IMG/VR virus record: IMGVR_UViG_3300010373_000006 | Span: 5,198 to 69,197 of that record | Reading direction: 5' to 3' (one strand) | DNA: 64,000 nucleotides | DNA from: a virus | Shown here: piece by piece, positions 7,367 to 64,000 of the stretch | Numbering within the stretch: position 1 is the first letter of the stretch | How the letters are laid out: the number at the start of each line of letters is the position of its first letter | Translations under genes and position numbers: made by a program | Notes under the pieces: generated by a model | Told to the model about the DNA's origin: nothing | What the model saw: only the letters and a program-made list of their open reading frames with translations | The model's database searches: none

Positions 7367-7375
7367 CGTAGCGAC

Positions 7376-20818: not shown

Positions 20819-20966
20819 CGGTTTTCCTCCGTTGAGGCCAGTCGTGCAACCCACCTAACTGTGTCGCCTATTAGCCATTTGGTCAAGCCGGAACGTCCGA
20901 TGGAACGTCTCGTAAGAACGTCTGATGGCAAACGAAGGGATTCGGTTTCGGCATTTGCGGCGCATT

Positions 20967-31649: not shown

Positions 31650-31839
31650 GGTTGTGAACGTATCAAACTATCGGTACACCGTGATAGATTTGTGCGATAA
31701 TATGGGTAATATGATACGACTAGGAAGGGCGAAAATCGGGGTGACGAAACCTCGTCATTCGCGTCATTTCAGCACACGATCATATCAACGAATGCGTATC
31801 AAATTGATAAAAAAACTCCGATTTCATGCGATTTTTTAT

Positions 31840-31888
31840 GGGTCCTTCCGCTTATGCGTTGCGAAGGACGTCGCACCGGGAACAGCCC
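31840..31888 (+). other. Candidate cos region (cosQ-like GGGTCCT plus dyad)
   Basis: GGGTCCT at 31840-31846 in an AT-rich gap just before the packaging genes; TGCGA-N6-TCGCA at 31860-31875. Confidence 0.35.
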
Positions 31889-31927
31889 ATTTATGCAATA
31901 CACTTTCTTTTTTTGAGCGTTTCGCCC

Positions 31928-33373
31928 TTGAGCCAAGCCAGCAAAGCCCGTCGTTCTGACGCCCGAAAACCCGCGCAAGATGAGCCCGTAAAGGCGCTTG
32001 CGCCCGTCTCGCGAGTCACGATCGACGCCCTGACGCCCGACCCCGCGAACCTCCGCAAGCACACCGATCGCAACGTCGCGGCGGTGGACGCCAGCGTGAA
32101 GCGTTTCGGTCCCGCACGCTCGATCGTGATCGACGAAAACGGCGTCGTTTGCGCCGGAAATCGCACGCTCGAAAGCGCCAAAGCGGCGGGTTTCACCGAT
32201 GTTTTGATCGTTGACCCCGAGCCGGGGCAGTTGGTCGCGGTGCGGCGCAAGGACTGGAGCCCCACCGAGGCGGTCGCGTACGGCATCGCGGACAACCGCT
32301 CGTCGGACCTCGGGGCGAACTCGTGGGAAGACGTGGCGCTGGCCGAGACGCTTCGGGCGATGCAGAGCGAGGCGTTCGATCTGGGAGCGGTCGGGTTTAC
32401 GGGGGACGAGGTTGACGAGCTGGTGAAGGGGCTGGGGAATGCGTTGGTGGGTGGTGAAGGGGGATCGAGCGGCGAAGACCAAGGCGCTCAGCACGACAAG
32501 GCCGACGAATTGCAGGCGAAGTGGGACGTGAAGACGGGCGACCTGTGGGTGATCCCGAGCAAGACCGGGAAGGGCGAACATCGACTGCTGTGCGGGGACT
32601 CGACGAAGGCGGAGGACGTGGCGAGGGTGATGGCGGGGGAGAAGGCGGACCTGTGCTTCACGAGCCCGCCCTACGGCCAGCAGCGCGATTACGAGAGTGG
32701 TGGTATCGGCGACTGGGATGCGCTCATGTGTGGCGTGTTCGGCAATCTGCCGATGGCGGACGCAGGGCAGGTGCTCGTCAACCTCGGGCTCATTCATCGG
32801 GACGGCGAGTGGATTCCGTACTGGGATGGGTGGATTCAATGGATGAGAGAGCAAGGATGGAGGCGGTTTGGGTGGTACGTGTGGGATCAAGGAAGCGGGT
32901 TGCCAGGCGACTGGAATGGCCGGCTTGCGCCATCGCATGAGTTCGTGTTTCACTTCAATCGGGAGCCAGTCAAACCCGAAAAAACTGTGGCCAAGAAACC
33001 GGAAAGCGTGCGAGATAGAACCGGCGACACCACCATGAGAGGCGACGATCCTGTCGGTCGAACATGGTCGTCCGGCGAAGCCTCGCTTCAGACTCATAAG
33101 GTTTCCGACAGCGTTATACGGGTTCAGCGGCAATGCGGCCCTGTGATGAAAGACACCCATCATCCGGCGGTTTACCCGGTAGGTTTCCCTGAATTCGCAA
33201 TGAAATCTTGGCCTGGTATTGCCTACGAGCCCTTCTCCGGTTCCGGAACTACCATCGTCGCCGCCGAGCAAACCGGTCGCCTCGCGAGAGGCATTGAGAT
33301 ATCGCCCAAGTACGTCGCCGTCGCCCTTGAACGGCTCGCCGGTCTCGGTCTCGAACCCCGCCGCGCATCATGA
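31928..33373 (+). CDS. ParB-like domain fused to an N6/N4 DNA methyltransferase
   Basis: PDPANLRKH...DENG...AGN (ParB); HRLLCGDST, FTSPPY, HPAVYP, EPFSGSGTT; start uncertain (ORF open from 31826). Confidence 0.85.
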   Translation: MSQASKARRSDARKPAQDEPVKALAPVSRVTIDALTPDPANLRKHTDRNVAAVDASVKRFGPARSIVIDENGVVCAGNRTLESAKAAGFTDVLIVDPEPGQLVAVRRKDWSPTEAVAYGIADNRSSDLGANSWEDVALAETLRAMQSEAFDLGAVGFTGDEVDELVKGLGNALVGGEGGSSGEDQGAQHDKADELQAKWDVKTGDLWVIPSKTGKGEHRLLCGDSTKAEDVARVMAGEKADLCFTSPPYGQQRDYESGGIGDWDALMCGVFGNLPMADAGQVLVNLGLIHRDGEWIPYWDGWIQWMREQGWRRFGWYVWDQGSGLPGDWNGRLAPSHEFVFHFNREPVKPEKTVAKKPESVRDRTGDTTMRGDDPVGRTWSSGEASLQTHKVSDSVIRVQRQCGPVMKDTHHPAVYPVGFPEFAMKSWPGIAYEPFSGSGTTIVAAEQTGRLARGIEISPKYVAVALERLAGLGLEPRRAS

Positions 33374-33570: not shown

Positions 33571-35868
33571 ATGAGCGACACGCCCTCCCCTGACCTGCGG
33601 AAGCTCGGTCCCGCCGAGCTCTGCCGGTTACTCAATTCCACCGAACTCGGAACCGTCTTGACCGAACGGCGCTTGACCCTCCAGCGCAACCGTGCCGGCC
33701 TGCGCGTCGGCTCCGGGCGGCATATCGACCTGATCAAATACGTCGCGTGGCTCGTTGGCGAACGGCACGCGCCTCGGCCTGCCACGATCCCGATGGCGCA
33801 GGGGTACGAGCGCGTCAAGGAAGCCGCACGGCAACGGGCCAGCGAGATCGCCAAGAGCGGTCGAGACATCGGGGAACTGCCCACGGTTGCCGATGCTGAA
33901 CGCAGGGCGGCCTGCCAGTTCAATTACCGGCTGTTCTGCGAATCGTACTTCCCGCAAACCTTCAGCCTCGCATGGAGCGAGGATCATTTGAAGGTTATCG
34001 GCCAGATCGAAACCTCCGTCCTTCAAGGCGGTCTGTTCGCCACCGCGATGCCGCGAGCATCCGGCAAGACCGCCCTCGCCGAAGCGGCCTGCATCTGGGC
34101 ATCCCTCTACGGGCACCGTGACTTCATGGCGCTCATCGGCTCAGACGAGGGCCACGCCGGCCAGATGCTTAACTCCATCAAAGCCGAACTGGAGGGCAAC
34201 GACGAACTCATCGCCGACTTCCCCGAGGTTTGCGTCCCGATCGAAAAACTCGAGGGGATCGCCAACCGATGCGCCGGCCAGCTCTACCAGGGCGAGCGAA
34301 CCCGGATCGGCTGGACTGCCAGCGAAGTCATCCTCCCGACCGTCAAGGGCTCGGCCGCATCGGGTGCGATCATCAAGGTCGCGGGCATCACCGGCGGCCT
34401 GCGCGGCATGAAGTTCAAGCGTCCGGATGGCAAGACTGTTCGCCCCTCGCTGGTGGTCGTCGACGACCCGCAAACCGACGGATCGGCGCACTCCCCAAGC
34501 CAATGCCAGACGCGCGAACGCATCCTCGCGGGTGCGATCCTCGGCCTCGCCGGACCCGGCAAGAAAATCTCCGGCATCATGCCCTGCACGGTAATCGCCA
34601 CCGGCGACATGGCCGACAACATCCTCGACCGCGACAAGCATCCCGAATGGAACGGGACGCGCACGAAGATGATTTACAGCTTCCCGACGAACGAAAAGCT
34701 CTGGGAAGAGTACGCGCGCATCCGCTCCGATGGACTGAAGGCCGAGCAAGGGATCACCGAAGCGACCGAATTCTATCGCGAGAACCGCGAAGCGATGGAT
34801 GAGGGTGCAAAAGTCGCGTGGGAAGAGCGATTCGAGCATGACGAGATATCCGCAATCCAGCATGCGATGAACTTGAAGTTGCGGGATGAGCGCGCGTTCT
34901 TCGCCGAGTACCAGAACGAGCCCATGAAGGACGCGGACGCTCGCCCCGACGACCTCACGCCCGACCAGATCACCGCCAAGCTAAACCGCCACGCAAAGGG
35001 CACTGTCCCTCTTGGCAGCGACAAGATCACCGCATTCATCGACGTGCAAAAGTCGCTCCTGTACTACGCGGTTGTGGGCTGGGAAGACGGCTTCACCGGC
35101 AATCTTCTGGCCTACGGTGCCTTCCCCGAGCAGAACCGCCATTACTTCACGCTCCGCGACGCCAAGCAATCCATCGCCGACGTGATCAAAGCCCCCGACC
35201 TGGAAGGCCAGATTTACGGGGCGCTCGAAATGCTGACCGGAGCGCTCTTGGGTCGCGGATGGCCGAGAGACGACGGCGTTGATCTGAAGATTGAGCGCCT
35301 GTTGATTGACGCCAACTGGGGCGACTCCACGGACATCATTTACAAGTTTTGCAGGCAGTCGCAGCACTCGGCCATCCTCACCCCGGCGCACGGAAAATAC
35401 ATCGGCGCGTCATCCTCCCCGATGCGTGAATGGCCGAAACGCGAGGGCGAACGCCGCGGACAGAACTGGATTCTCCGGTCAGGCGCGAAGCGAAGCGTTC
35501 GGCACGTCATCGTTGATACGAACTTCTGGAAGTCCTTCCTACACAATCGCCTCTCCGTGCCGATGGGCTCGAAGTCCACGTTCACGCTGTACGGCGAGAA
35601 GTCGGCCACACACGAAATGCTGGCCGATCATCTGTGCTCCGAGTACCGCGTTCGCGTGGAGGCGAAGGGCGCGGGCAGGTCGATCGACGAATGGAAGTTG
35701 AAACCCGAACGCCCTGACAACCACCTGTTCGACTGCCTCGTGGGCTGTTGTGTTGGCGCGTCGATGCAAGGCGTTTCGTTGGACGAATCGACCGTTGCGG
35801 CGGCTCCGAAAAAGACGCGCGTCTCATTCAAGGATCTTCAGGCCCAACGACGACAGGCGCGAGCCTGA
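33571..35868 (+). CDS. Terminase large subunit (GpA-like)
   Basis: Walker A MPRASGKT, Walker B VVVDD, nuclease FIDVQ, LIDANWG, DNHLFDC. Confidence 0.9.
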   Translation: MSDTPSPDLRKLGPAELCRLLNSTELGTVLTERRLTLQRNRAGLRVGSGRHIDLIKYVAWLVGERHAPRPATIPMAQGYERVKEAARQRASEIAKSGRDIGELPTVADAERRAACQFNYRLFCESYFPQTFSLAWSEDHLKVIGQIETSVLQGGLFATAMPRASGKTALAEAACIWASLYGHRDFMALIGSDEGHAGQMLNSIKAELEGNDELIADFPEVCVPIEKLEGIANRCAGQLYQGERTRIGWTASEVILPTVKGSAASGAIIKVAGITGGLRGMKFKRPDGKTVRPSLVVVDDPQTDGSAHSPSQCQTRERILAGAILGLAGPGKKISGIMPCTVIATGDMADNILDRDKHPEWNGTRTKMIYSFPTNEKLWEEYARIRSDGLKAEQGITEATEFYRENREAMDEGAKVAWEERFEHDEISAIQHAMNLKLRDERAFFAEYQNEPMKDADARPDDLTPDQITAKLNRHAKGTVPLGSDKITAFIDVQKSLLYYAVVGWEDGFTGNLLAYGAFPEQNRHYFTLRDAKQSIADVIKAPDLEGQIYGALEMLTGALLGRGWPRDDGVDLKIERLLIDANWGDSTDIIYKFCRQSQHSAILTPAHGKYIGASSSPMREWPKREGERRGQNWILRSGAKRSVRHVIVDTNFWKSFLHNRLSVPMGSKSTFTLYGEKSATHEMLADHLCSEYRVRVEAKGAGRSIDEWKLKPERPDNHLFDCLVGCCVGASMQGVSLDESTVAAAPKKTRVSFKDLQAQRRQARA

Positions 35869-36162: not shown

Positions 36163-37653
36163 ATGATCCTCGGTCCTAACGGCCAACCCTTAACGCGACC
36201 ACAAGCCGCGGCGCCGAAGGTGCGCGCACGCTATGACGCCGCGGTCACCGACCACGAGAACAAGAACCACTGGGCGAACGTTGATCACTTCTCCGCGCGT
36301 GCCGCGAACAACATCCAGGTTCGCCGCATCCTCCGCGACCGAGCACGGTACGAACGAGCGAACAACTCCTACTGTGCCGGCATCATCCTCACTCTCGCCA
36401 ACGACACCATCGGCACCGGGCCACGTCTTCAGGTCAACACCGAAGACGAATCGCTGAACGAAACCATCGCGAAGGCATGGGAAGAATGGTCGCGCTGTGC
36501 GGGTCTCGCCCAGAAGCTCCACACGATGCGTCAGAGCCGCGCCGTCGACGGTGAGGCGTTCGCGCTCCTGGTGACGAACCCCCGACTCGGCACGGACGTA
36601 CAACTCGACCTCAAACTACTCGACGCCGAGCAGGTCTCCACGCCATTCCCCTACCCGCTCAACCCGCACGTCGATGACGGGATGGTTATCGACGATCAGG
36701 GTAACGTCGTGGAATGGCACGTACTGAAATATCACCCGGGCGATATGTTCTATTACGGGTTCCCGTTCCAGTTTGACCGCCTATCGCCGTCCCATGTCAT
36801 CCAGTGGTTCCGTGCTGATCGTCCCTGGCAATTCCGCGGCGTACCCGAGATCACACCCGCCCTTCCGCTGTTCGCGCAACTGCGCCGCTACACGCTCGCC
36901 GTGCTCGCCGCTGCCGAAACCGCCGCGGACTTCGCCGCCGTCATTCAGACCGACATGCCGCCGGACTCGGATGACTTCGAGGTTGGCACGCCGTTCGAGA
37001 CGATGCCGATCGACAAACGGATGATGACCACGCTTCCCGCCGGCTACAAACTCGGCCAGTTCAAGGCTGAACAGCCCGCGCAAAACTACGAGATGTTCAA
37101 AGACGCGATCCTCAATGAGATCGCACGATGCATGAACATGCCGTTCAATGTGGCGGCTGGAAATAGCAAGAACTACAACTATTCCAGTGGCCGTCTGGAT
37201 CACCAGACGTACCACAAGGCCATCGGCGTCGATCGCAATCATCTCGAACGAAACGTTCTCGAACCTGTCTTCACAGCCTGGGTAGCCGAAGCACGGCTTG
37301 CGACGAGCATCATTCCGGCCGACCTCCAGACGATTCCCTACCAGTGGTACTGGGACGGTTTCGGCCACGTCGACCCTGCCAAGGAAGCCAACGCGCAGGA
37401 AACCCGGCTCGCGTCATGCACGACCACGCTTGCTCACGAGTGTGCGCGAGAAGGCCGCGACTGGAGACAGGTCATCCGGCAGCGCGCACGCGAAATCGCC
37501 GAGATGCGATCCCTTGGTCTGCCTATCGCCGAGCCGAGCGGAACCGTGCTCGCGCCCGAAGTGGACGAGTCCGACGACACCATCGCGCCGCCCGCATCTG
37601 CCGCGCATCGCGGTCGCAACGGGTTCCTGTCGCATTACCGGAATGGAGATTGA
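36163..37653 (+). CDS. Portal protein, lambda family
   Basis: ARYDAA, LRDRARY, DGEAF, QFRGVP, NYSSGRLD, VDPAKEANA. Confidence 0.92.
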   Translation: MILGPNGQPLTRPQAAAPKVRARYDAAVTDHENKNHWANVDHFSARAANNIQVRRILRDRARYERANNSYCAGIILTLANDTIGTGPRLQVNTEDESLNETIAKAWEEWSRCAGLAQKLHTMRQSRAVDGEAFALLVTNPRLGTDVQLDLKLLDAEQVSTPFPYPLNPHVDDGMVIDDQGNVVEWHVLKYHPGDMFYYGFPFQFDRLSPSHVIQWFRADRPWQFRGVPEITPALPLFAQLRRYTLAVLAAAETAADFAAVIQTDMPPDSDDFEVGTPFETMPIDKRMMTTLPAGYKLGQFKAEQPAQNYEMFKDAILNEIARCMNMPFNVAAGNSKNYNYSSGRLDHQTYHKAIGVDRNHLERNVLEPVFTAWVAEARLATSIIPADLQTIPYQWYWDGFGHVDPAKEANAQETRLASCTTTLAHECAREGRDWRQVIRQRAREIAEMRSLGLPIAEPSGTVLAPEVDESDDTIAPPASAAHRGRNGFLSHYRNGD

Positions 37654-37656
37654 TCA

Positions 37657-40152
37657 ATGGCAGAAACCTTGAATAGCGCAGGCGATTCGCACGCACATTC
37701 CTTGATTGGAAGCGGCGCCGTAGACAAGACAAGTTCATGGTCCTTCAGTGCCGCCGATGGCAACGCACTGCTTGGCCCAAACGGCGACGACTGGGGGCGT
37801 TTTGGCGCCTGCCATCTTGGTATCAATAGTGACTCGCCCGACCAGACGCGCGGGCATTGGTCCTATCCGTTCGCGAAACTCAAGGATGGCAAGACGACAC
37901 TCTTTCGCTCTGCCATCACAGCGATTCGCCAGCGCGCCGGCCAGCAAGGAAGCACCGCGATTTTCGATGCAGCCGGGCGGCTCCTCGAACAGATCGACGG
38001 CAAGAAGAATGCTCAGTCATCGGCTCCGGTCACGCTTCGCGCTGTGGCCACGTTCGACGCAGAGGCCGCGGCGACAAACGACGCAGATCCCGCCGCGCCA
38101 CGCAAGCCGCCCACGTTCACGATGGTCGCCAACACCGGCTCCGTCCCGATGCGACTGGAAGGCTGGCGTTACCCGGTCGTGCTCGACTTCGCCGGCGCCA
38201 ACATCCCGAGCCAATCCCTGCCGATCCGCCTTCACCATGACTCGGCGCAAGGCGTAGGCCACACCACGTCAATCGGCTTCGACAACGGCAACATGGTTGC
38301 AAAAGGTGTTGTCTCGCGTGATACGCCATCATCTCGTGATGTGACCAGTTCTGCGAAGAACGGCTTCCCCTGGCAGGCAAGTGTCGGCGCCTCGCCGGAT
38401 CAAGTCGAGTTCGTCAAAGAGGGCCAGAGCGCGACCGCTAACGGCCGCATGTTCTCCGGCCCAGTGAATATCGTCCGCTCGTGGACGCTCGGCGAAATCA
38501 GTTTCGTCGACCGCGGCGCGGATGGTCAGACGTCGGCAACCGTTGCCGCGTCGCTTCCCGTTGGCTCCCAGAAAGGGAAACCATCAATGTTTGAGCAATG
38601 GTTACAGGCCAAGGGGATCGACCCGACGGCCATCAGCGATGAGATCAAGACAGCGCTCCGTGCGGCGTACGACGCCGAGCAGGAACTGAAGGCCAATGCG
38701 GCAATGACTGCTCAGACCGTACAGGTCAACGCAGCCAACGGTGCCGCGCAAAACGGAGTCCAGGCCAACCCGTCCATCGCCGCGACCCTTGAGCAGATCG
38801 TGCAGGCTCAGCGCGATGAGGATACTCGCGTCCGGCGGATCACGGAGATCGCAGCCGAGCACATCGCAAAGCAGCCTTGGCGGCTTGACCAGTTCGAGAA
38901 GTTGGCCAAGACGGCAATCGCCGCCAAGTCCACCGTGGCCGAATTCGAGCTCAACGCGCTTCGCCTCCGTGCCGAGAGCGGCGCGGGACCGGCCGTGCAT
39001 GTCGGTGCGAGCCCCGACAGCGAAAAGAGCCAGAGCGTCCTTGAGGCTGCGATCTGCAAGACCGGACGTCTCACCAACATCGAGAAGCACTTCGACGCGC
39101 GTACCCTCGAAGCGGCCGACAAGCACTTTCGGTACGGCATCGGCCTTCAGGAAGTGCTGATGTGCGGTGCCGCAGCCAACGGCTATCGCGGTCAGGTCAG
39201 CGACGTCCGCGGCTTGCTCCGCGCGGCGTTCCAGACGGAGATTCGCGCGGAAGGATTCTCGCTTGTCAACATCCCCGGTATCTTGTCCAACGTCATGAAC
39301 AAGTACCTCGTTGACTACTTCAACTCCGTCGAGTCTGCTTGGCGAATCATCGCCGCGATCCGCAACGCTCGCGACTTCAAGCAGATCTCGTCCTACAGCC
39401 TGACCGGCGATCTTCAGTACGACCTGATCGGGCCGACCGGCGAGATCAAGAGCGGTTCGGTCGGGCAGACGTCGTACAACAACCAGGTCGCGACCTACGG
39501 CAAGATCCTTGCTATTACGCGGCAGGACATCATCAACGATGACCTCGGCGCCCTGATGCGTATTCCGCAACGCCTCGGTCGCGGTGCGGCACTGAAGATC
39601 AACGACGTCTTTTATACGACGCTCCTCGCTGGCGTCGGCTCGTTCTGGGTCAGCGGCAACAACAATCTGATCACCGGCGCCACGACGACCTTGACCGCTG
39701 TTGGCTTGACCGCGGCATTGCTCAAGTTCCGCCAGCAGACCGATCCCGACGGCAAGCCGCTGGGCATCACGCCAAAGATTCTGCTCGTGCCTCCCGAACT
39801 GGAGGTTACGGGCAAGCAGTTGATGAACTCCGCATTCTTCAATACCGGCGGTTCCGCCACGACCGCGCAGGTTCCTAACATGAACACATGGCAGGGTGCG
39901 TATAACCTTGCCGCGTCGACCTACCTCTCAAACGCGAACTACACCGGCTACTCGACAACCGCGTGGTTCTTGCTCGCCGATCCGATGGACATGCCTACCA
40001 TCGAGGTTGCGTTCCTCAATGGTCGTGAAGTGCCGATGATCGAATCGGCCGAGGCCGAGTTCGACACGCTTGGCATCCAGGTCCGCGGCGTCCATGACTT
40101 CGGCGTCGCCCTTCAGGAGCAACGCGGCTCCGTTCGCTCCGCAGGCGCGTAA
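37657..40152 (+). CDS. Prohead protease-major capsid protein fusion
   Basis: Protease HD...VGHT, WQASVG, LGEISFV..GAD; Mu-gpT-like capsid TYGKILAITRQDIINDDLGA, LLVPPELE, IEVAFLNG, HDFGV. Confidence 0.88.
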   Translation: MAETLNSAGDSHAHSLIGSGAVDKTSSWSFSAADGNALLGPNGDDWGRFGACHLGINSDSPDQTRGHWSYPFAKLKDGKTTLFRSAITAIRQRAGQQGSTAIFDAAGRLLEQIDGKKNAQSSAPVTLRAVATFDAEAAATNDADPAAPRKPPTFTMVANTGSVPMRLEGWRYPVVLDFAGANIPSQSLPIRLHHDSAQGVGHTTSIGFDNGNMVAKGVVSRDTPSSRDVTSSAKNGFPWQASVGASPDQVEFVKEGQSATANGRMFSGPVNIVRSWTLGEISFVDRGADGQTSATVAASLPVGSQKGKPSMFEQWLQAKGIDPTAISDEIKTALRAAYDAEQELKANAAMTAQTVQVNAANGAAQNGVQANPSIAATLEQIVQAQRDEDTRVRRITEIAAEHIAKQPWRLDQFEKLAKTAIAAKSTVAEFELNALRLRAESGAGPAVHVGASPDSEKSQSVLEAAICKTGRLTNIEKHFDARTLEAADKHFRYGIGLQEVLMCGAAANGYRGQVSDVRGLLRAAFQTEIRAEGFSLVNIPGILSNVMNKYLVDYFNSVESAWRIIAAIRNARDFKQISSYSLTGDLQYDLIGPTGEIKSGSVGQTSYNNQVATYGKILAITRQDIINDDLGALMRIPQRLGRGAALKINDVFYTTLLAGVGSFWVSGNNNLITGATTTLTAVGLTAALLKFRQQTDPDGKPLGITPKILLVPPELEVTGKQLMNSAFFNTGGSATTAQVPNMNTWQGAYNLAASTYLSNANYTGYSTTAWFLLADPMDMPTIEVAFLNGREVPMIESAEAEFDTLGIQVRGVHDFGVALQEQRGSVRSAGA

Positions 40153-40210: not shown

Positions 40211-40471
40211 ATGGAGTCATTCATGAAGGTCACATTGACTACGAATCTCGGTCTCATCGACGCCAAACGGCTCGGAATCGGCGCCGCAATGGAGGGCGAC
40301 ACGATCGACGCTGACGACCCCTCTGCGGGCGAACTGATCAAGCGCGGCTGGGCCATTCCCGCCACCGCGAAGACCACCCCGGCAACCGCCGACATCAAGG
40401 CCGTCCCTCCGACCGGCGATCTGAAAAGCGCACCCAAGGGCGCGCCCACATCGGACAAGGGCCAGGCGTAA
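40211..40471 (+). CDS. Small head-module protein
   Basis: ELIKRGWAIP motif typical of small post-capsid proteins. Confidence 0.55.
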   Translation: MESFMKVTLTTNLGLIDAKRLGIGAAMEGDTIDADDPSAGELIKRGWAIPATAKTTPATADIKAVPPTGDLKSAPKGAPTSDKGQA

Positions 40472-41781
40472 TGCAAACACCCGAGTCCTCAGACCGCCGC
40501 CTGTTTCTCGCGATGCCCGGCTACGGAGAGATGACTGCCGGCGCCGCGCGCGGCTTCTGGCGATCGACCCGACTCCCGGACACTCACGTCTATTACGAGT
40601 ATCGCGAAGGATCGCTCCTCGCCGCGAACTTCAATAGCCTGTGGGTCTCCGCGCTGAATCGCGTCCATCGAGGCCAGCGCGTCGATTACTTCGCGATGCA
40701 ACACGCGGACGTTGAGCCACAGGACTGGTGGCTCGATACGCTCATCGACGAACTCGAATCCAGGGATCTTGATATCCTCGGATGCGTCGTGCCGATCAAG
40801 GACACTCGCGGCACGACGTCGCTCGCCTTGGCACGCGATGACGGCGATGACTGGCGGCCACTGTGCCGGTTGACGATGGAGGAGGTATACCGTCTGCCGC
40901 CGACGTTCACGAGCGACGATACCGGCCATCCGCTCCTACTCAACACCGGCCTTTGGGTCTGTCGGTTCGATCCGTCGTGGGTCACGAAGGTTCACTTCAC
41001 GATCAACGATCGCATTGTCCAGGAGCGTTCGACGGGCGAATATCGCGCGCAGACCGAGCCCGAGGACTGGTACTTCTCCCGGCTCTGCCACGAGCTCAAG
41101 CTCCGCGTTGGCGCCACGCGGAAAATCATATTGACGCACCGCGGGGCTGCATCGTTCACGAATGTTCGCCCCTGGGGTGAGTCCTACGATTCGGCCTGGG
41201 TGGATGAGAGTCCTATCCCGGACGATCTTCCCGGCTTCGCGTTTCCCTTCGATGTGGCCGGCTGGCTCCATCCCGAGGAGGGTCGACAACTCGCGCGGCT
41301 CGCGTCCGGTAAGCGAGTGCTTGAGATCGGCTCATACTGCGGCGCCTCGACGATCTGCCTCGCGCAGACCGCTGCCAGCGTCGTCACGGTTGATCCGCAC
41401 GACGGACGAGCGACTCCGGTCCCGCAACCGACGCTGGAAAACTTGACCAACAATCTCGCGCGCTTTGGTGTGGCGGATCGGGTCGAAATCTGCGTCGGCA
41501 CGTTTGCCGAATGGTCAGTATCGCTGAAGGAAGCATGTTTCGATTTGATATTCATCGACGGCGCGCACGACGCCGATTCGGTCGCCGCCGATATCGCGTG
41601 CTCCCTCGATTTGCTTGCACCGGGCGGCACCCTCGTGTTTCACGACTACCGCTCGAACGAGCCCGCAGTTACAGCCGCCGTCGATGATCTGATCGCATCG
41701 GGCGGTGAACTGGTCTCCGCCTGTTCGTCTCTGGCCGTGGTTCGACCCCCGGCCTCGGTTTCTTTACCCCTGGAGGTCTGA
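40471..41781 (+). CDS. Glycosyltransferase-like domain fused to a class I SAM methyltransferase (Methyltransf_24-like)
   Basis: HAD, EDWYFS (GT-A-like); VLEIGSYCGAST, DLIFIDGAHD, GGTLVFHDY. Confidence 0.75.
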   Translation: MQTPESSDRRLFLAMPGYGEMTAGAARGFWRSTRLPDTHVYYEYREGSLLAANFNSLWVSALNRVHRGQRVDYFAMQHADVEPQDWWLDTLIDELESRDLDILGCVVPIKDTRGTTSLALARDDGDDWRPLCRLTMEEVYRLPPTFTSDDTGHPLLLNTGLWVCRFDPSWVTKVHFTINDRIVQERSTGEYRAQTEPEDWYFSRLCHELKLRVGATRKIILTHRGAASFTNVRPWGESYDSAWVDESPIPDDLPGFAFPFDVAGWLHPEEGRQLARLASGKRVLEIGSYCGASTICLAQTAASVVTVDPHDGRATPVPQPTLENLTNNLARFGVADRVEICVGTFAEWSVSLKEACFDLIFIDGAHDADSVAADIACSLDLLAPGGTLVFHDYRSNEPAVTAAVDDLIASGGELVSACSSLAVVRPPASVSLPLEV

Positions 41782-43425: not shown

Positions 43426-44253
43426 GTGAACTTCAACCGCGCCTCACACCTCTGGCACGGCTTCGACGGCACCCAACAGCCGCCTCCGGGGTGGGAGTTG
43501 GACCCGGATGATGAGTTCGGGGATGCGGCGCTGTCGCTTCTTCCGAGCGATAATAAATTCTATGATTATGGATACAAGAATCTTTCGGCGGGAAACGTCG
43601 GGACAATCACAGGATACGCAGGGTCCAGCGGGCCGCTACTCAGTTTCGGCGGCTCGCAGACGATTCCGATCACGTTTTATCCGCCGCCGTTAGGATTCAT
43701 GGCGATGGCGGTCACTTTCCAGACCACGGTTTCGGGTGCTCAAAACTCGATCCTCGGGTTCAACTCCAACTCGAATGGTATCTCTATTGGATTACATGAT
43801 CGCGATATGTATCTAGATTCAAGTGGCTTTCTGAAGTTTTATGTGTTTAATGGTAGTTCTCAGACTGTGACGTCGAATGCAGCACTCAATGACGGCAAAC
43901 CGCACAGTGTAGTTGGGGTCATCAACGGCAAGCTTTGCATGTATGTTGATGGAGTGCTACAAACCTCAACTGTTTCCAGCGTCAATAATGGATACAACGG
44001 CTATAGTGCTGGTTCGTGCTACCTCGTGATAGGGGCGTGCGCTCAGGGGACGCCAGGGTATTTCACCGGCCAACTGGGTTCGGTCTCAGTTTTCAACCGC
44101 GCCCTCATCCCCTCCCAGATCGCCGACCTCTACTACACGCCGTTCCGTGGGTTCCGACCGCCGGCGGGGCGGAGGGTGGTTGTGGCGCAACCGTCGTCCT
44201 CATGGCCCTGGTGGATCTCCCAGGGATCACCGCTCGGCGCAGGGGTACTCTGA
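43426..44253 (+). CDS. LamG / concanavalin-A-like domain protein
   Basis: LNDGKPHSVVG, MYVDGV, IGA...FTGQLGSVSVFNRALIPSQI. Confidence 0.8.
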   Translation: MNFNRASHLWHGFDGTQQPPPGWELDPDDEFGDAALSLLPSDNKFYDYGYKNLSAGNVGTITGYAGSSGPLLSFGGSQTIPITFYPPPLGFMAMAVTFQTTVSGAQNSILGFNSNSNGISIGLHDRDMYLDSSGFLKFYVFNGSSQTVTSNAALNDGKPHSVVGVINGKLCMYVDGVLQTSTVSSVNNGYNGYSAGSCYLVIGACAQGTPGYFTGQLGSVSVFNRALIPSQIADLYYTPFRGFRPPAGRRVVVAQPSSSWPWWISQGSPLGAGVL

Positions 44254-48091: not shown

Positions 48092-50356
48092 ATGGCAAGC
48101 GCAAGCAATATTCGCGCAGGCCGCGCGTTCGTCGAACTCGGCAGCACCGACGTCAATTTCAACAAGGGGCTCGACAAGGCCCTGCGCCGGATTCAGACGT
48201 TCGGGCGCAGCGTTGCCACGATCGGCCAACGTGTTGTGCAAGGCGGCATCTTCGCCGCTACGCCGTTCGCGCTGGCCGGGAAGTCCTTTGCGTCGTACGA
48301 GCAGGCGATGGCGCGTGTCAAGGCCATCACCAACGCTACCGGCGACCAGTTCTCCGCGCTGGGCAACCTCGCGAAGAAACTCGGTCGCGATACGCAGTTC
48401 TCGGCCGCTGACGCTGCGAAAGCGATGGGTAACTTCGCGCAGGCTGGATTCTCGGTCAACGAGATTCTGAAAGCCACCGGGCCGACACTCGACCTCGCCG
48501 CAACCGCTCAGATCGGCATCGCCGAGGCGGGTGACATCGCAGCGAAGATCCTCCGCGGGATGGGACTCGATGTGAGCCAACTGTCGGGCGTGATCGACGT
48601 TCTCGCGAAGGCCGCGACGACCAGTAATACCGATATCGTCATGCTTGGCGATGCGTTCAAATTCGTTGGCCCCGTTGCGAAGTCCGCGGGCGTTTCGCTG
48701 GAGGAAATCACCGCCGCGATCCAACTGCTGTCGAACGCCGGCATTCAGGGCGAACTCGCGGGAACAAGCCTCCGCGGCATCCTTCTAAGCCTGACATCGC
48801 CGTCCGAAAAGGCGGAAAAGGAACTCGCCAAGCTCGGCATCCGAATCAAGGACGGCAAGGGCGATTTCGTCGGGCTCATCAGTGTAGTCGGGCAACTGCA
48901 AAAAGCGCTTGCCGGCATGGGCAACGCACAGCGGCTCGAAATCCTCGGCCACATCTTCCCCGACCGTCAAGCCGCCGGCGCTATGGAACTCGTGGCGCAG
49001 GGAGCCGATCATCTCGCCTCCGCGACCAAGGCTCTGGGCGGCGCGGCCGGGACTGCGGCACGTGTGGCTGCCGTGCAGCTCGACACAATGTCAGGCGCTG
49101 CTGAAATGGTCATGTCCTCTCTCGAAGGGCTTGGCCTGGAAGTCGGCGAGGCGCTGAACCCCGTTCTCCGCAAGGCCGCGACATTCCTGGTTGACCTGCT
49201 CAACGCGCTCGCAGCGACCGCCAAGGCTAGCCCCGATTTGATTATCGGGATGGCGAAGACAGTAGCCGTGAGCATCGCGGCCGGCGCAGCGATCGCGGGC
49301 CTCGGCGTCGCATTGAGCACAGCAGGTGCCGCTCTCGCCGTGATCCTTTCGCCGCTCGGCATAATCGCAACTGCGCTCGGCGCGGGAGTGGCCGCGTGGG
49401 CGAAATGGACCGAGGGAGGACAACTCGCGATCGCTGGGTTCCTTCCGCTCTTGGACAGCATGAAAGAAACCGCGACCACGACGTTCAAGGCGATCAGCGA
49501 CGCGCTCAAGGGCGGTGATCTGGCGCTCGCGGGCAAGGTTCTCTGGGCGGGTCTCAGAGTCGAATTCCTCAAAGGCAAAAACTATGTGATGGATGTATTT
49601 TCAGAAATCGCGATGTTTGCAAAGAACACATGGAGCGATATCAGTCCCGAGTTCGACAAGACGCTCGTGAATGCGTTTTTCGGAATTCTGCATACATGGG
49701 TTGATGTCAGCGACGCGATGGTCACGACATTTAATCAGGCACTTGAAGAGATGGCCAAGAACGTTGTTGCGATGTTCGTTGGGCCGATCGGCGAGGCTCT
49801 TGGCGCTGCGCTAGGAGTCGATCTCGTAACTCCGCTGAAGAACGTCGGAGTTCTCGAATCTGACGAAAAGAAGGCGTTCCGCGAGGACAGACGGCAGACG
49901 CGGCATGAGCAGTTGAATCAAGACAATCAGGGCATTCTTAATGATATCGACGCCGAGGAACAGGACAACGCCCGGCGTCACGCGGAAGAGCGCGCGTTCG
50001 ACCCAGGCATTGAGCAGCGCCGGACCGATCTCCAGAAGGCTCAGGACGAACTCAACGCACTCACTCAGGAGGCCGCCAAAGAGGCGTCGCGCGTCACGTC
50101 AAGCACTGGCCCCACGACCACATTCCCGTCGCAACCCAGGAGTCCAGGCGAACTCCCCGACGTCGAGGAGAACGTGAGGGCCGCGGTTCGCAAGGGCGAA
50201 TCCATCGGCACGTTCAACGCCTCTGCGGTCAGCCGGCTGGGCGCTGGCAAGTCTCTCACATCGCTGATGGAAAACCAGATCAAGGCAACCGAGTCCGTGG
50301 AAAAACAACTCGCCAAACTCAATGAGAAGGCCCGCCGCGGCCTGGCATTCGGCTAA
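48092..50356 (+). CDS. Tail tape measure protein (TP901-type core)
   Basis: AGRAFVE, FSAADAAKAM, AGIQGELAGTSLR; Ala-rich helical. Confidence 0.92.
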   Translation: MASASNIRAGRAFVELGSTDVNFNKGLDKALRRIQTFGRSVATIGQRVVQGGIFAATPFALAGKSFASYEQAMARVKAITNATGDQFSALGNLAKKLGRDTQFSAADAAKAMGNFAQAGFSVNEILKATGPTLDLAATAQIGIAEAGDIAAKILRGMGLDVSQLSGVIDVLAKAATTSNTDIVMLGDAFKFVGPVAKSAGVSLEEITAAIQLLSNAGIQGELAGTSLRGILLSLTSPSEKAEKELAKLGIRIKDGKGDFVGLISVVGQLQKALAGMGNAQRLEILGHIFPDRQAAGAMELVAQGADHLASATKALGGAAGTAARVAAVQLDTMSGAAEMVMSSLEGLGLEVGEALNPVLRKAATFLVDLLNALAATAKASPDLIIGMAKTVAVSIAAGAAIAGLGVALSTAGAALAVILSPLGIIATALGAGVAAWAKWTEGGQLAIAGFLPLLDSMKETATTTFKAISDALKGGDLALAGKVLWAGLRVEFLKGKNYVMDVFSEIAMFAKNTWSDISPEFDKTLVNAFFGILHTWVDVSDAMVTTFNQALEEMAKNVVAMFVGPIGEALGAALGVDLVTPLKNVGVLESDEKKAFREDRRQTRHEQLNQDNQGILNDIDAEEQDNARRHAEERAFDPGIEQRRTDLQKAQDELNALTQEAAKEASRVTSSTGPTTTFPSQPRSPGELPDVEENVRAAVRKGESIGTFNASAVSRLGAGKSLTSLMENQIKATESVEKQLAKLNEKARRGLAFG

Positions 50357-55817: not shown

Positions 55818-56341
55818 TCGTCTTCGGCATCGGCATGCCCAAAACCGGGACATGCTCGCTCACCGCCGCGCTAAACCGTCTCGGCGTCCCATGTCTTCAC
55901 GACCCAAGCCCGCACCAAGCCCGGCTCATCCTGCGCGGTGAGCGCGTCGAGCCCTACCAGGCGGCATGCGGGCATACGCTGTATCGCCAGTGGTATCGGC
56001 TCTACGAGCGGTATCCTGCGGCGAAATTCGTGCTCACGAGCCGCCCAAAAGAGGAGTGGCTGACCTCGCGCGTCGCTCATGTCTACCGCGAACGCGTGGC
56101 CGGCGGCCCCTGGCAGCACATCGACACGAGACGGGACGCGAGCGACTACGACGCACACTACAGGGCGGTTCGGCGGTTCTTCGGCCGCCGGCCTGGCTTC
56201 GTCGAGTTGCCGCTAGGGAGCGGCTGGGCACCGCTGTGCGGTGTGCTTGGAATGCCCGAACCCGACGAGCCCTACCCGCACGAGAACACCGCAATCGGCG
56301 GCCTGAGACGACTGCTTTCCGCAATGGAAAACGCGCGTTGA
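55814..56341 (+). CDS. Sulfotransferase (Sulfotransfer_4-like)
   Basis: GIGMPKTGTCSLTAALNRLG (PAPS loop), YPAAKFVLTSR...W..S, GWAPLCGVLG...PYPHEN. Confidence 0.85.
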   Translation: MIVFGIGMPKTGTCSLTAALNRLGVPCLHDPSPHQARLILRGERVEPYQAACGHTLYRQWYRLYERYPAAKFVLTSRPKEEWLTSRVAHVYRERVAGGPWQHIDTRRDASDYDAHYRAVRRFFGRRPGFVELPLGSGWAPLCGVLGMPEPDEPYPHENTAIGGLRRLLSAMENAR

Positions 56342-56946
56342 TCGAACTATCAACCGAGATCTCTCATCGCGTGGATTTCGCGCTGCTTTGCAATGCGCGC
56401 GGATTCAAGGATGCGGTCGAGATCGGTACGGACCTCGGGCGGTTCGCGAAAGACTTCCTCGATAGGTTCAAAGGTAATTGGTTATTCTGCGTTGATCCTT
56501 ACGAGCCGCATCCGGACTTTTCGTATGACCGGAGCGGAGACCTGATCGTTGCCGCACAGGCGCTTGCGCCGCATCACGGCCGGTTCCGATTCGTCCGCGC
56601 GCGGTCAACCGATGCCGTTGCGTGGGTGGCACGAGTGATCAGCCCTGAGTTTATTTATATCGACGGATCACACGAGGAGCCCGACGTTACGGCCGATTTG
56701 CTGGCGTGGTGGGACATCCTGCCGACGCGCGGCATGCTCGCGGGCCATGACTTCGACGACGATCACCCCGGCGTGATCGAGGCCGTCACCGCATTCGCCG
56801 GTGCGCGAAACCTGACCGTGAGGCTGACGCACGAAAAGGACGCGCCGCCATCCTGGTATATCTACAAGAAAGAACCGGAGATTCTGTTTCACCGATTCTT
56901 CAGGTTTGATGAGTCGGCGAACGCTGCGTACACGAGGGCCACGTGA
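56338..56946 (+). CDS. Class I SAM methyltransferase (Methyltransf_24-like)
   Basis: VEIGT..G, VDPY, FIYIDGSH, GMLAGHDF. Confidence 0.8.
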   Translation: MIELSTEISHRVDFALLCNARGFKDAVEIGTDLGRFAKDFLDRFKGNWLFCVDPYEPHPDFSYDRSGDLIVAAQALAPHHGRFRFVRARSTDAVAWVARVISPEFIYIDGSHEEPDVTADLLAWWDILPTRGMLAGHDFDDDHPGVIEAVTAFAGARNLTVRLTHEKDAPPSWYIYKKEPEILFHRFFRFDESANAAYTRAT

Positions 56947-61020: not shown

Positions 61021-61049
61021 ATTATAGCACTCGTCTATGTACGGGTCAA
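61021..61049 (-). promoter_or_regulatory. Leftward sigma70 promoter
   Basis: Minus strand TTGACC (61044-61049), 17 bp, TATAAT (61021-61026). Confidence 0.75.
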
Positions 61050-61119
61050 GAGCACAAGATCGAAAATCTTTGCTATCTGAAAAGTTTTCGCTCGGGCACT
61101 CTCCTTATTGACCAGTCTC

Positions 61120-61148
61120 TTGACGTCGTGGACGGCGTTGTCTACACT
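61120..61148 (+). promoter_or_regulatory. Rightward promoter of the HTH-cas12 operon
   Basis: TTGACG (61120-61125), 17 bp, TACACT (61143-61148). Confidence 0.7.
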
Positions 61149-61204: not shown

Positions 61205-61462
61205 ATGCCGGAATCGAGGAAACGCCGCGTGCCGATGGGTGAAACGCTCGAAAAGAATCTGGTTCGCCTCGGATGGGCGAGCACGAAAGTTCGTGTGTCC
61301 GAAATCGCGAAGGCGGTGGAAGACCGAACAGGGAAGTCAGTTACCAAACAGCGGATTTCCGGCCTTTTGAACGCGATCTTTATCGAGTCCAAAACCATCA
61401 AGTGGTTGGCCGAAGGGCTCGGGGTGAAGCCAGAGGAATTGACCAAAGAGGAACCAAAGTAA
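61205..61462 (+). CDS. XRE/Cro-like HTH regulator coupled to the Cas12 gene
   Basis: VSEIAKAV...VTKQRISGLLN...TIKWLAEGLGVKPEEL; AGGAG RBS; TAATG overlap with the next ATG. Confidence 0.75.
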   Translation: MPESRKRRVPMGETLEKNLVRLGWASTKVRVSEIAKAVEDRTGKSVTKQRISGLLNAIFIESKTIKWLAEGLGVKPEELTKEEPK

Positions 61463-63474
61463 TGGCCTTCGGCAACGTCGCGAAACCTAGCCGGATCTAC
61501 ACGCACAAGAGCCGCCCCCCGCACGAGGGTGCGCAGCTCGCGAGCGACCAACTCTACCGTGCACACCAGTACGCCAACGCGCTGATCGAGACCGAGCGCC
61601 AACGCTGGAACGCGACCCAGGATCTCATGCGGTCGATGTTCCCGCGCATCGCGGAACTCGAAGCCCGGATCGACGCAATCAACGCGGCGATCGAGGCCAA
61701 AAACGCAGCCGTCAAGCACCAGAATCAGGCCGCTCGATCACGCACTGCGACAGCTGAGGACCGCGCTGAGGTCAAGCAACTCCAGAGCGAACGGCGCGAT
61801 GCAGCCAAGGAGCTCACCGCCGAACGCCACCGCCAAACCGGAGTCCCCAAGCCTCGCAAGGAAGCCTGGGAGCGAATTCACGCGGTCATCAACGCCACGA
61901 CGCGCGACGAGAAGGAACGCAAGGCACTGCGCAAGGCTGCGCAGGCGGCCATCGACGCGGGCGAATCGCCGGCCCCGCTGACCGCCGAAGAGGACCGCGA
62001 GGCGTTCGGTGATCCTGAATACCGCCGACGACGCGCGGCGATTGACGAGACCGCCAACGCGGATCGGCGGGCCAAGCGCGCGGTGTGCGAGGTTTACTGG
62101 GGAACGTACCTTTGCGTCGAGGGGGCGGTCGACAAGTCGGTGGAGGATTGCGCCAAAGGGCAACCGGTACGCAATGGCAAGCCTCCGGTTCCACCGGGAC
62201 CGCCCCGATTCCGGCGCTGGTCGCCCGAGGGGAAACTCGGCGTGCAACTTCAGGGCGGTCTGTCCTGGCTCGATGCGCTGGCGGGAACCGATTCACGGCT
62301 CCGGATCGAACTCCAACCACTTGCGGCGCGGCCGACCGTGAGCAAGTCGGGCAAGCCCTTGCCTCTGGCTGATCCGAATTCGCGGCGGTCGCGCGAGAAT
62401 AGCCAGGTCGTCGTCTGGGCGCGGATCGGCACTGAGGAGGATGGGCGTTCGCCAATCTGGATGAAGACCGTGGCGCACCTTCATCGCCACCCACCGGCTG
62501 ACGCCGTGATCAAATGGGTCTACCTCCAGCGCAACCTCAAGGGTGTGCAAACGTGGTGGGAGGCTCAGTTTGTCTTCGAGCGCGAAGAGGGCTGGGCCAA
62601 GGATCGCGAGACCCTGCGCGGGGAGGCCGCGATTGACCTGGGGTGGCGCAAGGTCGCTGACGGCTTGCGCGTCGCTGTGCTGATTGACGACGACGGCGAG
62701 CGGATGGAATGCGTACTGCCGGATTCCTGGCTTGAATCGTGGGCCAAGGCGCAATCAATCCAGGGGTTCCGCGACACGGAGTTCGACGCGATTCGCCCGG
62801 CGCTGGTGCACTGGCTCAAGGCGCGGCGGGAGGCCGGTACGCTCCCGGAATGGCTCGGGGAGGCAACCGGGAGCCTACATCAGTGGAAGTCCTGCGAACG
62901 GCTCGGGAAGGTCGTCTGGCAATGGAAGGACCAGCGATTTGACGGCGACGAGGCGATGTTCGAGCGTCTGGTCGAGTGGCGGAATCGCGACCGGCACCTG
63001 CACAATTACGCGCGTGGGATGGAAGAAACCGCCGTACGGCGTCGCGACGAGCATTACCACCGCTGGGCGGCCCTGGTGCGGCGGCGGTATGCGTTGGTGA
63101 AGGTGGAGGATACCAACTGGCGTGAGATGCAGCACCGACCCGAGGCGACGGACGACGGCAAGAATGCGACGATCGGCGCGTTCCGCTGTGCGGCGGTCGG
63201 ACGGTTGCTCGAAACGATACAAGAGCACGTATGGAACGTGGTCGCCGTTGAACCGGCCTGGACGACGAAGACCTGCCACGCTTGCGGGCATGTTGATGAT
63301 TTCGACTCCGCGAAGGAACTCGTCCACACATGCTCGGCGTGCGGGGAAATCTGGGATCAAGACGACAACGCGGCGCGCGGCCTGCTGAAAGGCCGCGTGC
63401 TCAAGTGGCTGACGCGGGAGGGACGGAAACTACCCAAGGCGGAGCGTGTACGGGATGTTGAGGCGGCGGTGTAA
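61462..63474 (+). CDS. cas12m: Type V CRISPR effector, Cas12m (V-U1)-like, ~670 aa, RuvC D-E-D intact
   Basis: N-terminal coiled coil; YWGTY, RFRRW..EGKLGVQLQ, HRHPPADA, IDLGWR (RuvC-I), VEDT (RuvC-II), CHACG/CSACG Zn ribbon, DQDDNAA (RuvC-III); adjacent CRISPR array. Confidence 0.8.
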   Translation: MAFGNVAKPSRIYTHKSRPPHEGAQLASDQLYRAHQYANALIETERQRWNATQDLMRSMFPRIAELEARIDAINAAIEAKNAAVKHQNQAARSRTATAEDRAEVKQLQSERRDAAKELTAERHRQTGVPKPRKEAWERIHAVINATTRDEKERKALRKAAQAAIDAGESPAPLTAEEDREAFGDPEYRRRRAAIDETANADRRAKRAVCEVYWGTYLCVEGAVDKSVEDCAKGQPVRNGKPPVPPGPPRFRRWSPEGKLGVQLQGGLSWLDALAGTDSRLRIELQPLAARPTVSKSGKPLPLADPNSRRSRENSQVVVWARIGTEEDGRSPIWMKTVAHLHRHPPADAVIKWVYLQRNLKGVQTWWEAQFVFEREEGWAKDRETLRGEAAIDLGWRKVADGLRVAVLIDDDGERMECVLPDSWLESWAKAQSIQGFRDTEFDAIRPALVHWLKARREAGTLPEWLGEATGSLHQWKSCERLGKVVWQWKDQRFDGDEAMFERLVEWRNRDRHLHNYARGMEETAVRRRDEHYHRWAALVRRRYALVKVEDTNWREMQHRPEATDDGKNATIGAFRCAAVGRLLETIQEHVWNVVAVEPAWTTKTCHACGHVDDFDSAKELVHTCSACGEIWDQDDNAARGLLKGRVLKWLTREGRKLPKAERVRDVEAAV

Positions 63475-63659
63475 GGTGTCACGCGAGCGGCGACGTGGCG
63501 CGAAAATCCCGGGCGCCGCTCGCGTGGTGTAAATTGGTGGATGGCAATGGGGTTACGGAATGTGGCTTGGAAGGAAAGGAGGATCGGGAGGATGGAACGT
63601 GCGGCCTCTCGCAAACCGGCGTATAATCGGGTGCGGGGAAAGGGGTTATGAGGGGTGCT
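63475..63659 (+). promoter_or_regulatory. CRISPR leader
   Basis: 185-bp non-coding gap; TATAAT at 63622-63627, 32 bp upstream of repeat 1; no clear -35. Confidence 0.6.
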
Positions 63660-64000
63660 GTGTAATGCCCGGCAGAAGGCTTTGGATTCTGCGACGGTGG
63701 GGCCTTGCGTGTTGCCGCAGTCTCCAAGACGAGTGTAATGCCCGGCAGAAGGCTTTGGATTCTGCGACATCGTGTCGGAGGTCAGGGCCGAGTCGAGGAC
63801 TGGGTGTGTAATGCCCGGCAGAAGGCTTTGGATTCTGCGACGTGTCCTGGTGGGGTGTGGCTCTTCCGGGTTGCAACGTGTAATGCCCGGCAGAAGGCTT
63901 TGGATTCTGCGACTGTGATGTGGGTCTAAGATGCATGGAGCCCTTCTCTGTGTAATGCCCGGCAGAAGGCTTTGGATTCTGCGACCCGGAGTAGAGGTCG
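63660..64000 (+). CRISPR. CRISPR array: at least 5 identical 36-bp repeats, truncated by window end
   Basis: GTGTAATGCCCGGCAGAAGGCTTTGGATTCTGCGAC at 63660, 63733, 63806, 63878 and 63950; unique spacers of 37, 37, 36 and 36 nt plus a partial fifth; internal GCAGAA/TTCTGC stem. Confidence 0.98.

Follow-up and report, generated by a model that had tools for sequence, protein, structure and literature searches.

What kind of effector is encoded beside the CRISPR array of a phage, and does it cut the DNA to which its guides would lead it? The question is raised by a 64,000-nucleotide (nt) stretch of viral DNA, bases 5198-69197 of the 69,197-bp IMG/VR virus record IMGVR_UViG_3300010373_000006 (record label L002), which is referred to here as the window. 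Close to its right end lies a gene for a protein of 670 amino acids (aa) with a canonical Asp-Glu-Asp (D-E-D) RuvC triad, followed by CRISPR repeats. The protein is a member of the Cas12m family, and the locus is a genuine though divergent system of type V-M (formerly V-U1) carried by a phage, its effector sharing no more than 47% identity with any cluster representative searched. Family membership, fold, locus anatomy, repeat structure, the absence of cas1, cas2 and cas4 and the phage context were established directly. As for the role, we infer that a phage-borne programmable repressor is the best reading: DNA binding guided by CRISPR RNA (crRNA), which would silence competing elements without cutting them, seems reasonably likely.

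Cas12m membership of the effector

The sequence-only reading of this DNA had placed a protein of about 670 residues, with D392, E549, D634 and a zinc ribbon, next to a CRISPR array. Translation of the open reading frame (ORF; protein P0001) bears this out: all the motifs it listed are in place, including YWGTY (residues 212-216), VQLQ (261-264) and HRHPPADA (341-348), and the array begins 185 nt downstream of the gene. Among 51 aligned family sequences, D634 is kept in 50; of the zinc-ribbon cysteines, three never vary (C605, C608, C624) and the fourth, C627, is present in at least 90%. A longer frame opens at 61273. Position 61462 was taken as the start because the N-termini of the seven closest homologs align with the Met there, and because its ATG overlaps the stop of the upstream ORF (TAATG) and is preceded by AGAGGA.

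The only Pfam match of the protein is PF07282 (Cas12f1-like TNB domain), over residues 591-639. The NCBIfam models of TnpB fall far under their cut-offs (27 bits for a cut-off of 100, and 19.5 for one of 425), as do those of Cas12f. When the single sequence was compared with PDB chains by phmmer, the Cas12m chain 23vw (577 aa) was matched with E 9e-58 over residues 227-642, UnCas12m4a with 2e-7 and GoCas12m (8pm4) with 2.8e-4, while 8hhl gave nothing at E <= 1. A family profile was built from the query and 50 of its 72 non-self hits, chosen because they cover at least 90% of the query (the 51 sequences mentioned above). This profile matched 23vw with E 6.5e-164, MmCas12m2 (8hhl) with 1.9e-81, GoCas12m (8pm4) with 6.3e-76 and UnCas12m4a (23vu) with 2.2e-62. 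The next best chain, a TnpB-like/Fanzor protein, reached 7.1e-15, and Cas12f and TnpB about 1e-9 or weaker (TnpB 2e-7). Full-length homology to Cas12m thus stands above that to other type V families and to TnpB.

The AlphaFold2 model computed from the 51-sequence alignment has a mean predicted local distance difference test (pLDDT) of 88.2 and a predicted template modelling score (pTM) of 0.84, with long helices at residues 24-231. The modelled protein has the bilobed architecture of Cas12m, with predicted WED, REC1, coiled-coil REC2, RuvC and zinc-finger TNB domains. In Foldseek, the top four structures are all Cas12m (template modelling, TM, score to the target 0.68-0.76), with 8hhl at 0.67/0.75 and 8pm4 at 0.69/0.76, whereas Cas12f and TnpB reach at most 0.55. 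Thus phmmer, the family profile and Foldseek all favour the Cas12m lineage that had been proposed from the letters of the sequence. The profile comparison with Cas12m, Cas12f and TnpB, of a kind that had been named as a check, comes down on the Cas12m side by a wide margin, and a grouping with TnpB is contradicted. Cas12j (Cas-phi) and Cas-lambda are phage-specific type V nucleases that cut DNA. They resemble the present system as compact phage-encoded single effectors beside small arrays without adaptation genes, but they are unrelated to it past the RuvC core (Cas12j chain 7odf, phmmer E 0.67; TM about 0.25-0.32, and 0.23-0.29 in the test against Cas12j), and the protein does not belong to Cas12j.

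With the solved Cas12m proteins (MmCas12m2, 8hhl/8hhm/8hio; GoCas12m, 8pm4; 23vw; UnCas12m4a, 23vu), the effector has in common full-length homology, the same fold, the LGWR and DQDxNAA motifs, the zinc ribbon and a 36-nt two-stem repeat. The lack of a trans-activating crRNA (tracrRNA) and of adaptation genes and the carriage on a mobile element are likewise common to it and to Cas12m systems. No accompanying paper was found for the PDB entries 23vw and 23vu. The protein had also been called compact, which does not suit it, as its 670 aa exceed the 577-614 aa of the solved chains. Compared with its seven closest homologs, it has about 56 more residues in the REC2 coiled coil, helical in the AlphaFold model (pLDDT 70-89), and about 16 more at residues 227-247.

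In the profile alignment, D392, E549 and D634 fall in the columns of H317, D485 and D579, the RuvC site of MmCas12m2 according to Omura et al. (PMC10442227). The same authors divide Cas12m by its triad into four clades, of which the first has HEK/HQK, the second HDD, the third DED/NED and the fourth DED/DND/NED (Omura 2023, PMC10442227), so that the D-E-D of the present protein is a state described for the family; 23vw likewise shows D, E and D in these three columns. In contrast, MmCas12m2 and GoCas12m, to which the protein is only distantly related, have H-D-D (PMC10442227, PMC11013384). The sequence-only reading had taken D-E-D for an exception. It is instead the majority state, found in 91 of 113 relatives in a MAFFT alignment in which motif-seeded loci inflate the conservation of the third Asp, and the D-E-D clades 3 and 4 were already published (PMC10442227). 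By source, the triad is D-E-D in 39 of 51 metagenome proteins, 38 of 47 proteins from viral contigs and 14 of 15 from genome contigs. The set combines the 51 metagenome proteins with 62 of 78 locus-derived ones; the 16 that were dropped were shorter than 500 aa, exact duplicates, or local matches only (L048 and L082).

The relatives were gathered in two ways. In an exhaustive search of 1.84 billion cluster representatives, 1,495 passed E <= 1e-30 and 3,350 passed E <= 0.001; apart from the query itself, none exceeded 47% identity. Additionally, loci were scanned with the motif WDQDxNAA, which was taken from an 8-sequence alignment and favours the third Asp. In IMG/VR, 59 loci encoding relatives were obtained in this way. 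A CRISPR-like periodic repeat begins 10-440 nt 3' of the gene in 47 of them, and for several of the remaining 12 the record offers hardly any sequence past the gene. Among GenBank genomes, 23 loci were obtained, from Planctomycetota, Pseudomonadota, Chloroflexota, 'Deltaproteobacteria' and further groups. Most relatives owe their viral label to IMG/VR itself, and some of these records could be plasmids. The hallmark phage profiles PF04860, phrog_21, PF03354 and PF05065 are all without a match in the records of L005, L008, L011, L012 and L015; phrog_21 matches the present record and that of L003, and none of those of L004, L007 and L010. In a tree of the 113 proteins (FastTree, 555 columns, midpoint root), the sister of the query is the metagenome protein P0004 (support 0.997), and both belong to a five-member clade with P0003, P0005 and P0006 (support 0.98). 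A relative is also found in the 197-kb GenBank phage Virus Rctr197k (L085, KX853510.1, 3890-7306), where it is annotated as 'similar to transposase' and directly adjoins an annotated CRISPR region of 1.5 kb.

Cas12m proteins of viral origin have been described before. CHOOSER (Nat Commun 2024, PMC11576732) reported 21 of them, which cluster apart from the prokaryotic ones, measure 623-999 aa against 519-608 aa, and have D-E-D in nine cases; the present protein, compared by description only, fits their size and D-E-D profile. MvCas12m of the myxophage MV-1 (610 aa, D305/E463/D555, eight spacers) is billed as the first phage Cas12m (bioRxiv 10.64898/2026.09.14.751636). The GenBank locus L068 (JADZFZ010000476.1, ~5788-8500), with a 610-aa protein, D305/E463/D555 and nine repeats, is very probably the MvCas12m locus of MV-1, because its figures and contig label match that preprint; the title of the GenBank record describes it as a contig of a Deltaproteobacteria MAG. 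Both systems consist of a phage-borne Cas12m with an array of the same repeat type, a D-E-D triad, and neither cas1, cas2 and cas4 nor a tracrRNA. However, the L068 protein is only about 30% identical to the present one and lies outside its nearest clade in the tree, and MV-1 is another phage from another habitat.

CRISPR array, guide RNA and spacers

The in-window part of the array comprises five identical 36-nt repeats (Table 1), and the array runs on into the first 412 bases of the record, outside the window, across the terminal overlap of the record. A 66-bp direct terminal repeat (window 63935-64000, identical to L002:1-66) covers the end of spacer 4, repeat 5 and the start of spacer 5. 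Because these 66 bases, common to both ends, sit inside the array, it is continuous over the record junction. Tools that treat the record as linear would see two small arrays, as the array is split over its ends. In total, eight repeats are identical, two are variants and an 11th copy is degenerate; the spacers number 9-10 and measure 36-37 nt. The degenerate repeats are at the end distal to the gene, and therefore the leader is taken to be the 185 nt that separate the gene from repeat 1. Within this leader, no full promoter match was obtained in the consensus scan, and its folding overall is no better than that of shuffles (z 0.49).

The repeats were compared with a pseudoknot template of two stems. 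Stem II consists of 5-6 bp, ends 1-3 nt from the 3' end and encloses a loop of 7-11 nt, whereas in stem I three bases located 0-3 nt upstream of stem II pair with the first three loop bases. The set of 27 repeats contained the two repeat types of this phage and one repeat (35-37-nt consensus) from each of 25 related loci. Stem II fits in all 27 and both stems fit in 26, against 10% and 3% of shuffled repeats, respectively, and there are 26 distinct pairs of stem II arms among the 27. The two distal variant repeats of this array retain stem II through a compensatory change, from GCAGAA/UUCUGC to GCAGAG/CUCUGC. This geometry is in line with the crRNA pairing reported for PmCas12m (bioRxiv 10.64898/2026.03.26.714355) and with the 'stem I / stem II' in a figure legend of Bigelyte et al. 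(PMC11013384).

The system had been regarded as possibly independent of tracrRNA, which agrees with the search for an anti-repeat: none was found anywhere in the genome. As the longest minus-strand match to the repeat is 11 nt, nothing suggests a tracrRNA. A separate Rfam search gave nothing relevant. In silico, the locus thus has adjacent two-stem repeats of about 36 nt and a single crRNA guide, as expected of type V-M. The exact repeat is absent from IMG/VR and from metagenome contigs. A degenerate repeat pattern gave two single matches, of which one looks like chance. The other, at L086:1023-1053 on a metagenome contig of 2,363 bases, is a single repeat-like unit of this Cas12m repeat type in which the two stems are preserved; it looks like a possible solo repeat, no second copy of the searched pattern being found on that contig.

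A comparison of the ten spacers with the phage itself and with all fetched loci gave matches to their own array only, apart from one internal match of spacer 5. Its positions 5-20 are identical over 16 nt to window 44119-44134 (record 49316-49331) on the opposite strand. About 0.007 such matches were estimated by chance; since the first four bases, proximal to the protospacer-adjacent motif (PAM), are unpaired, the match is nevertheless probably due to chance. Neither half of the array gave any match to GenBank phages or, at E <= 0.001, to 401 genomes of Schlesneria's phylum, whose place as host is a guess from four of eight named portal relatives and from the Cas12m relatives in such genomes. 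Among PLSDB plasmids, the first half matched nothing and the second half gave one chance-level match (E 0.4) that runs from a repeat into a spacer. In IMG/VR, spacers 1-3 (three of the ten) had no match over their first 24 nt in a search for exact matches, by which mismatched targets would be missed.

Phage record and surroundings of the locus

Terminal repeats are present in the record, whose CheckV completeness is 100, and PHROG profiles identify a DnaB-like helicase, the terminase large subunit, the portal, a head-protease fusion, the tape measure protein and several DNA methyltransferases, which upholds the claim that the effector is phage-encoded. The record is the complete genome of a tailed phage, probably a temperate one in view of its integrase. 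Its terminase is less than 30% identical to anything among GenBank phages. The absence of cas1, cas2 and cas4, which had been noted for the window, holds for the whole 69,197-bp record: the profiles PF01867, PF09827 and PF01930 gave no match, while each of the Cas1, Cas2 and Cas4 profiles matched in 6-9 of 14 control genomes. The lack of an adaptation module and the carriage by a phage with an integrase are both as described for type V-M, which is enriched on plasmids and found in some prophages (PMC11656645), and whose loci are normally without adaptation genes (bioRxiv 10.64898/2026.09.14.751636).

Upstream of cas12m lies an 85-aa ORF, which resembles a helix-turn-helix protein by eye only. 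It has no Pfam match at E <= 0.01 and belongs to no family that was matched, and no homolog of it stands beside the cas12m relatives at other loci (tblastn, best E 0.54). The consensus scan for promoters gave two sites against 0.4 expected from shuffles. They form a promoter-like pair arranged back-to-back (window 61021-61148), the minus-strand site being near consensus. In the sole public DNA run containing the stretch, a soil metagenome from which the record may derive, G stands in place of A at window position 62687 within cas12m, and the 40-kb contig of that run ends within the first repeat-spacer unit of the array.

Several other features of the phage were observed. At least four DNA methyltransferase-like genes are present in these 69 kb (11080-12591, 31826-33373, 40471-41781 and 55966-56946), one such gene being fused with a ParB-like N-terminal domain. 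The first gene past the array, outside the window at L002:481-948, encodes a circularly permuted YpsA protein of the SLOG family (PF12694, E 6e-32). Furthermore, a coding stretch at about 3,700-4,300 of the record, also outside the window, is put together from numerous short units that are GC-rich and nearly identical to one another (GCC TGG TCC GCC and similar).

Table 1. Coordinates of the cas12m locus and of phage genes in the window
Feature	Position	Strand	Basis or remark
Tyrosine integrase	19517-20854	minus	
Terminase large subunit	33571-35868		PHROG
Portal	36163-37653		PHROG
Head-protease fusion	37657-40152		PHROG
Tape measure protein	48092-50356		PHROG
Divergent promoter-like site TTGACC-17-TATAAT with TG, 11/12, the stronger of the two	61049-61021	minus	Consensus scan, pattern match only
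Sigma-70-like promoter TTGACG-17-TACACT, 5' of 85-aa ORF and cas12m	61120..61148	+	Consensus scan, pattern match only
85-aa ORF, stop overlapping cas12m start	61205..61462	+	ORF list
cas12m, 670 aa and stop (P0001)	61462..63474	+	ORF translation
Lineage-specific extension of about 56 residues in REC2 coiled coil (~residues 115-182)	61804..62007	+	Alignment with seven closest homologs
D392 codon, motif IDLGWR	62635-62637	+	RuvC
E549 codon, motif VEDT	63106-63108	+	RuvC
TNB zinc ribbon C605-C627 (CxxC...CxxC; CHACG 605-609, CSACG 624-628)	63274-63342	+	
D634 codon, motif DQDDNAA	63361-63363	+	RuvC
Leader between cas12m and array, 185 nt (TATAAT hexamer at 63622-63627, 32 nt before repeat 1)	63475..63659	+	
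14-bp GC-rich hairpin right after stop codon, no U tract	63479..63527	+	RNA fold
CRISPR array, in-window part	63660..64000	+	Five identical 36-nt repeats
In-window repeats	63660-63695, 63733-63768, 63806-63841, 63878-63913, 63950-63985	+	

Role of the D-E-D effector and rival explanations

Expression, recognition of a PAM and binding without cleavage are predictions from the anatomy of the locus and from tested orthologs. The 85-aa ORF and cas12m would be transcribed from the promoter-like site in front of them, a pattern match, and the array from the same plus strand as cas12m. In each crRNA, a repeat handle at the 5' end, with the fold of the two-stem pseudoknot, would be retained together with a 3' guide. 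By analogy with tested orthologs, the crRNA-loaded protein would find PAM-flanked double-stranded DNA (dsDNA), form an R-loop and stay bound, and the bound complex may block transcription or replication of the target without a cut, as the tested orthologs do, D-E-D ones included. Competing phages or plasmids might be the targets of the phage or prophage, a guess drawn from review literature.

The sequence-only reading had held that characterised Cas12m proteins have a degenerate H-D-D site and bind DNA without cutting it. This is right for MmCas12m2 and GoCas12m, but D-E-D orthologs have been characterised too, and they leave the DNA uncut (PMC11013384). Among the eight orthologs reported by Bigelyte 2024, four of them D-E-D, none cleaved dsDNA and six showed PAM-dependent binding; with purified MsCas12m, a D-E-D protein, there was no cutting of target or of collateral DNA or RNA, and D-E-D, H-D-D and N-D-D orthologs bind dsDNA uncut and protect against plasmids and phages (PMC11013384). 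Moreover, mutation of the HDD site of MmCas12m2 to DED did not restore cleavage (PMC10442227). Because the four D-E-D orthologs showed no dsDNA cleavage, the canonical triad is weak evidence for cleavage.

Several points weigh against silencing by DNA binding. The identity of the effector reaches no more than 47% with the cluster representatives and about 30-40% with the nearest solved Cas12m, and since it is so divergent, the behaviour of the tested orthologs may not be transferable to it. The conservation of the D-E-D triad and the retention of D634 suggest, from the alignment, selection for some metal-dependent RuvC function. No assay of any viral Cas12m was found in the parts of the literature available. 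No spacer target was found in the phage itself, GenBank phages, PLSDB, IMG/VR (three of the ten spacers) or the 401 genomes of the guessed host phylum; expression, crRNA processing, binding and target are predictions.

One rival is a cleavage-competent Cas12m, whose D-E-D RuvC site would cut or nick target DNA, so that the phage would destroy competitors rather than silence them. The triad is present and conserved (D-E-D in 91/113, the third Asp in 50/51), though the loci seeded with WDQDxNAA inflate the conservation of that Asp. Omura et al. wrote of the D-E-D clades (3 and 4) that they 'may facilitate' hydrolysis of DNA by two metals (PMC10442227), yet none of the four tested D-E-D orthologs cut dsDNA, MsCas12m spared collateral DNA and RNA as well (PMC11013384), and the restored triad of MmCas12m2 brought no cutting back (PMC10442227). 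On the other hand, the protein is far from every tested ortholog, and no assay of a viral D-E-D Cas12m was found in the literature; as far as the available text of CHOOSER goes, only a Cas-lambda homolog was validated and none of its viral Cas12m proteins was assayed (PMC11576732). Cleavage is judged unlikely for this effector. The broader proposal, that the viral D-E-D branch including this protein with its enlarged REC2 keeps a RuvC nuclease activity (cleavage or nicking) which tested bacterial orthologs lack, is considered rather improbable. If it were true, the family would not consist of binders throughout, and a cutting form would be retained by phages for mobile-element warfare.

Binding-only effectors are able to repress (PMC11013384, PMC10442227), and the phage is temperate by its integrase; a domesticated regulator is thus conceivable, in which crRNAs would steer Cas12m to host or phage promoters and tune lysogeny or host physiology. 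The exact 16-nt self match of spacer 5 (about 0.007 expected) could be its trace, but it spans spacer positions 5-20 and leaves the four PAM-proximal bases unpaired, and it is the only self match of at least 16 nt. Neither half of the array was matched in the 401 genomes of the guessed host phylum, and ten different spacers with degenerate distal repeats resemble an array of the immune type, so that such regulation has a slender chance. An inactive remnant, with gene and array carried along without a function, would agree with the lack of adaptation genes and of detected targets, and no RNA run containing the stretch was found among public runs, which is not evidence on expression. However, adaptation genes are usually lacking in V-M loci (bioRxiv 10.64898/2026.09.14.751636). 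The frame of 670 codons is uninterrupted and retains every residue that is invariant in the family, eight repeats are identical while the variant ones hold their stem through the compensatory change, and the AlphaFold model is confident; a remnant is accordingly held to be very unlikely. TnpB of IS200/IS605 elements is a RuvC protein of about 400 aa without a REC2 coiled coil, guided by omega-RNA at a transposon end and not associated with arrays, and Cas12f relies on tracrRNA. Both have the RuvC and TNB core (PF07282) in common with the effector, whose only Pfam match it is, and a weak NCBIfam TnpB score (27 bits against the cut-off of 100) points the same way. But similarity to both is much weaker (TM at most 0.55) and the guide here comes from a crRNA-only array. 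The family profile gives E values of 1e-62 to 1e-164 for Cas12m against 2e-7 for TnpB, the model has a full, even enlarged, Cas12m REC lobe in a protein of 670 aa, and an array follows 10-440 nt 3' of the gene in 47 of the 59 IMG/VR loci of relatives. A TnpB, or the TnpB-to-Cas12m intermediate once suggested for it, that merely lies near an array is scarcely credible.

Silencing by crRNA-guided binding remains the preferred reading of the locus. No new category is added by it, since the literature already contains viral Cas12m proteins, with their greater size and D-E-D sites. What it offers is a complete, well-delimited type V-M example from a temperate phage, with an effector whose lineage is remote from all assayed Cas12m proteins. 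Most of the clade keeps the D-E-D site, although the D-E-D orthologs tested leave DNA uncut, and this viral protein with its enlarged REC2 would be a reasonable test case for the purpose of that site.

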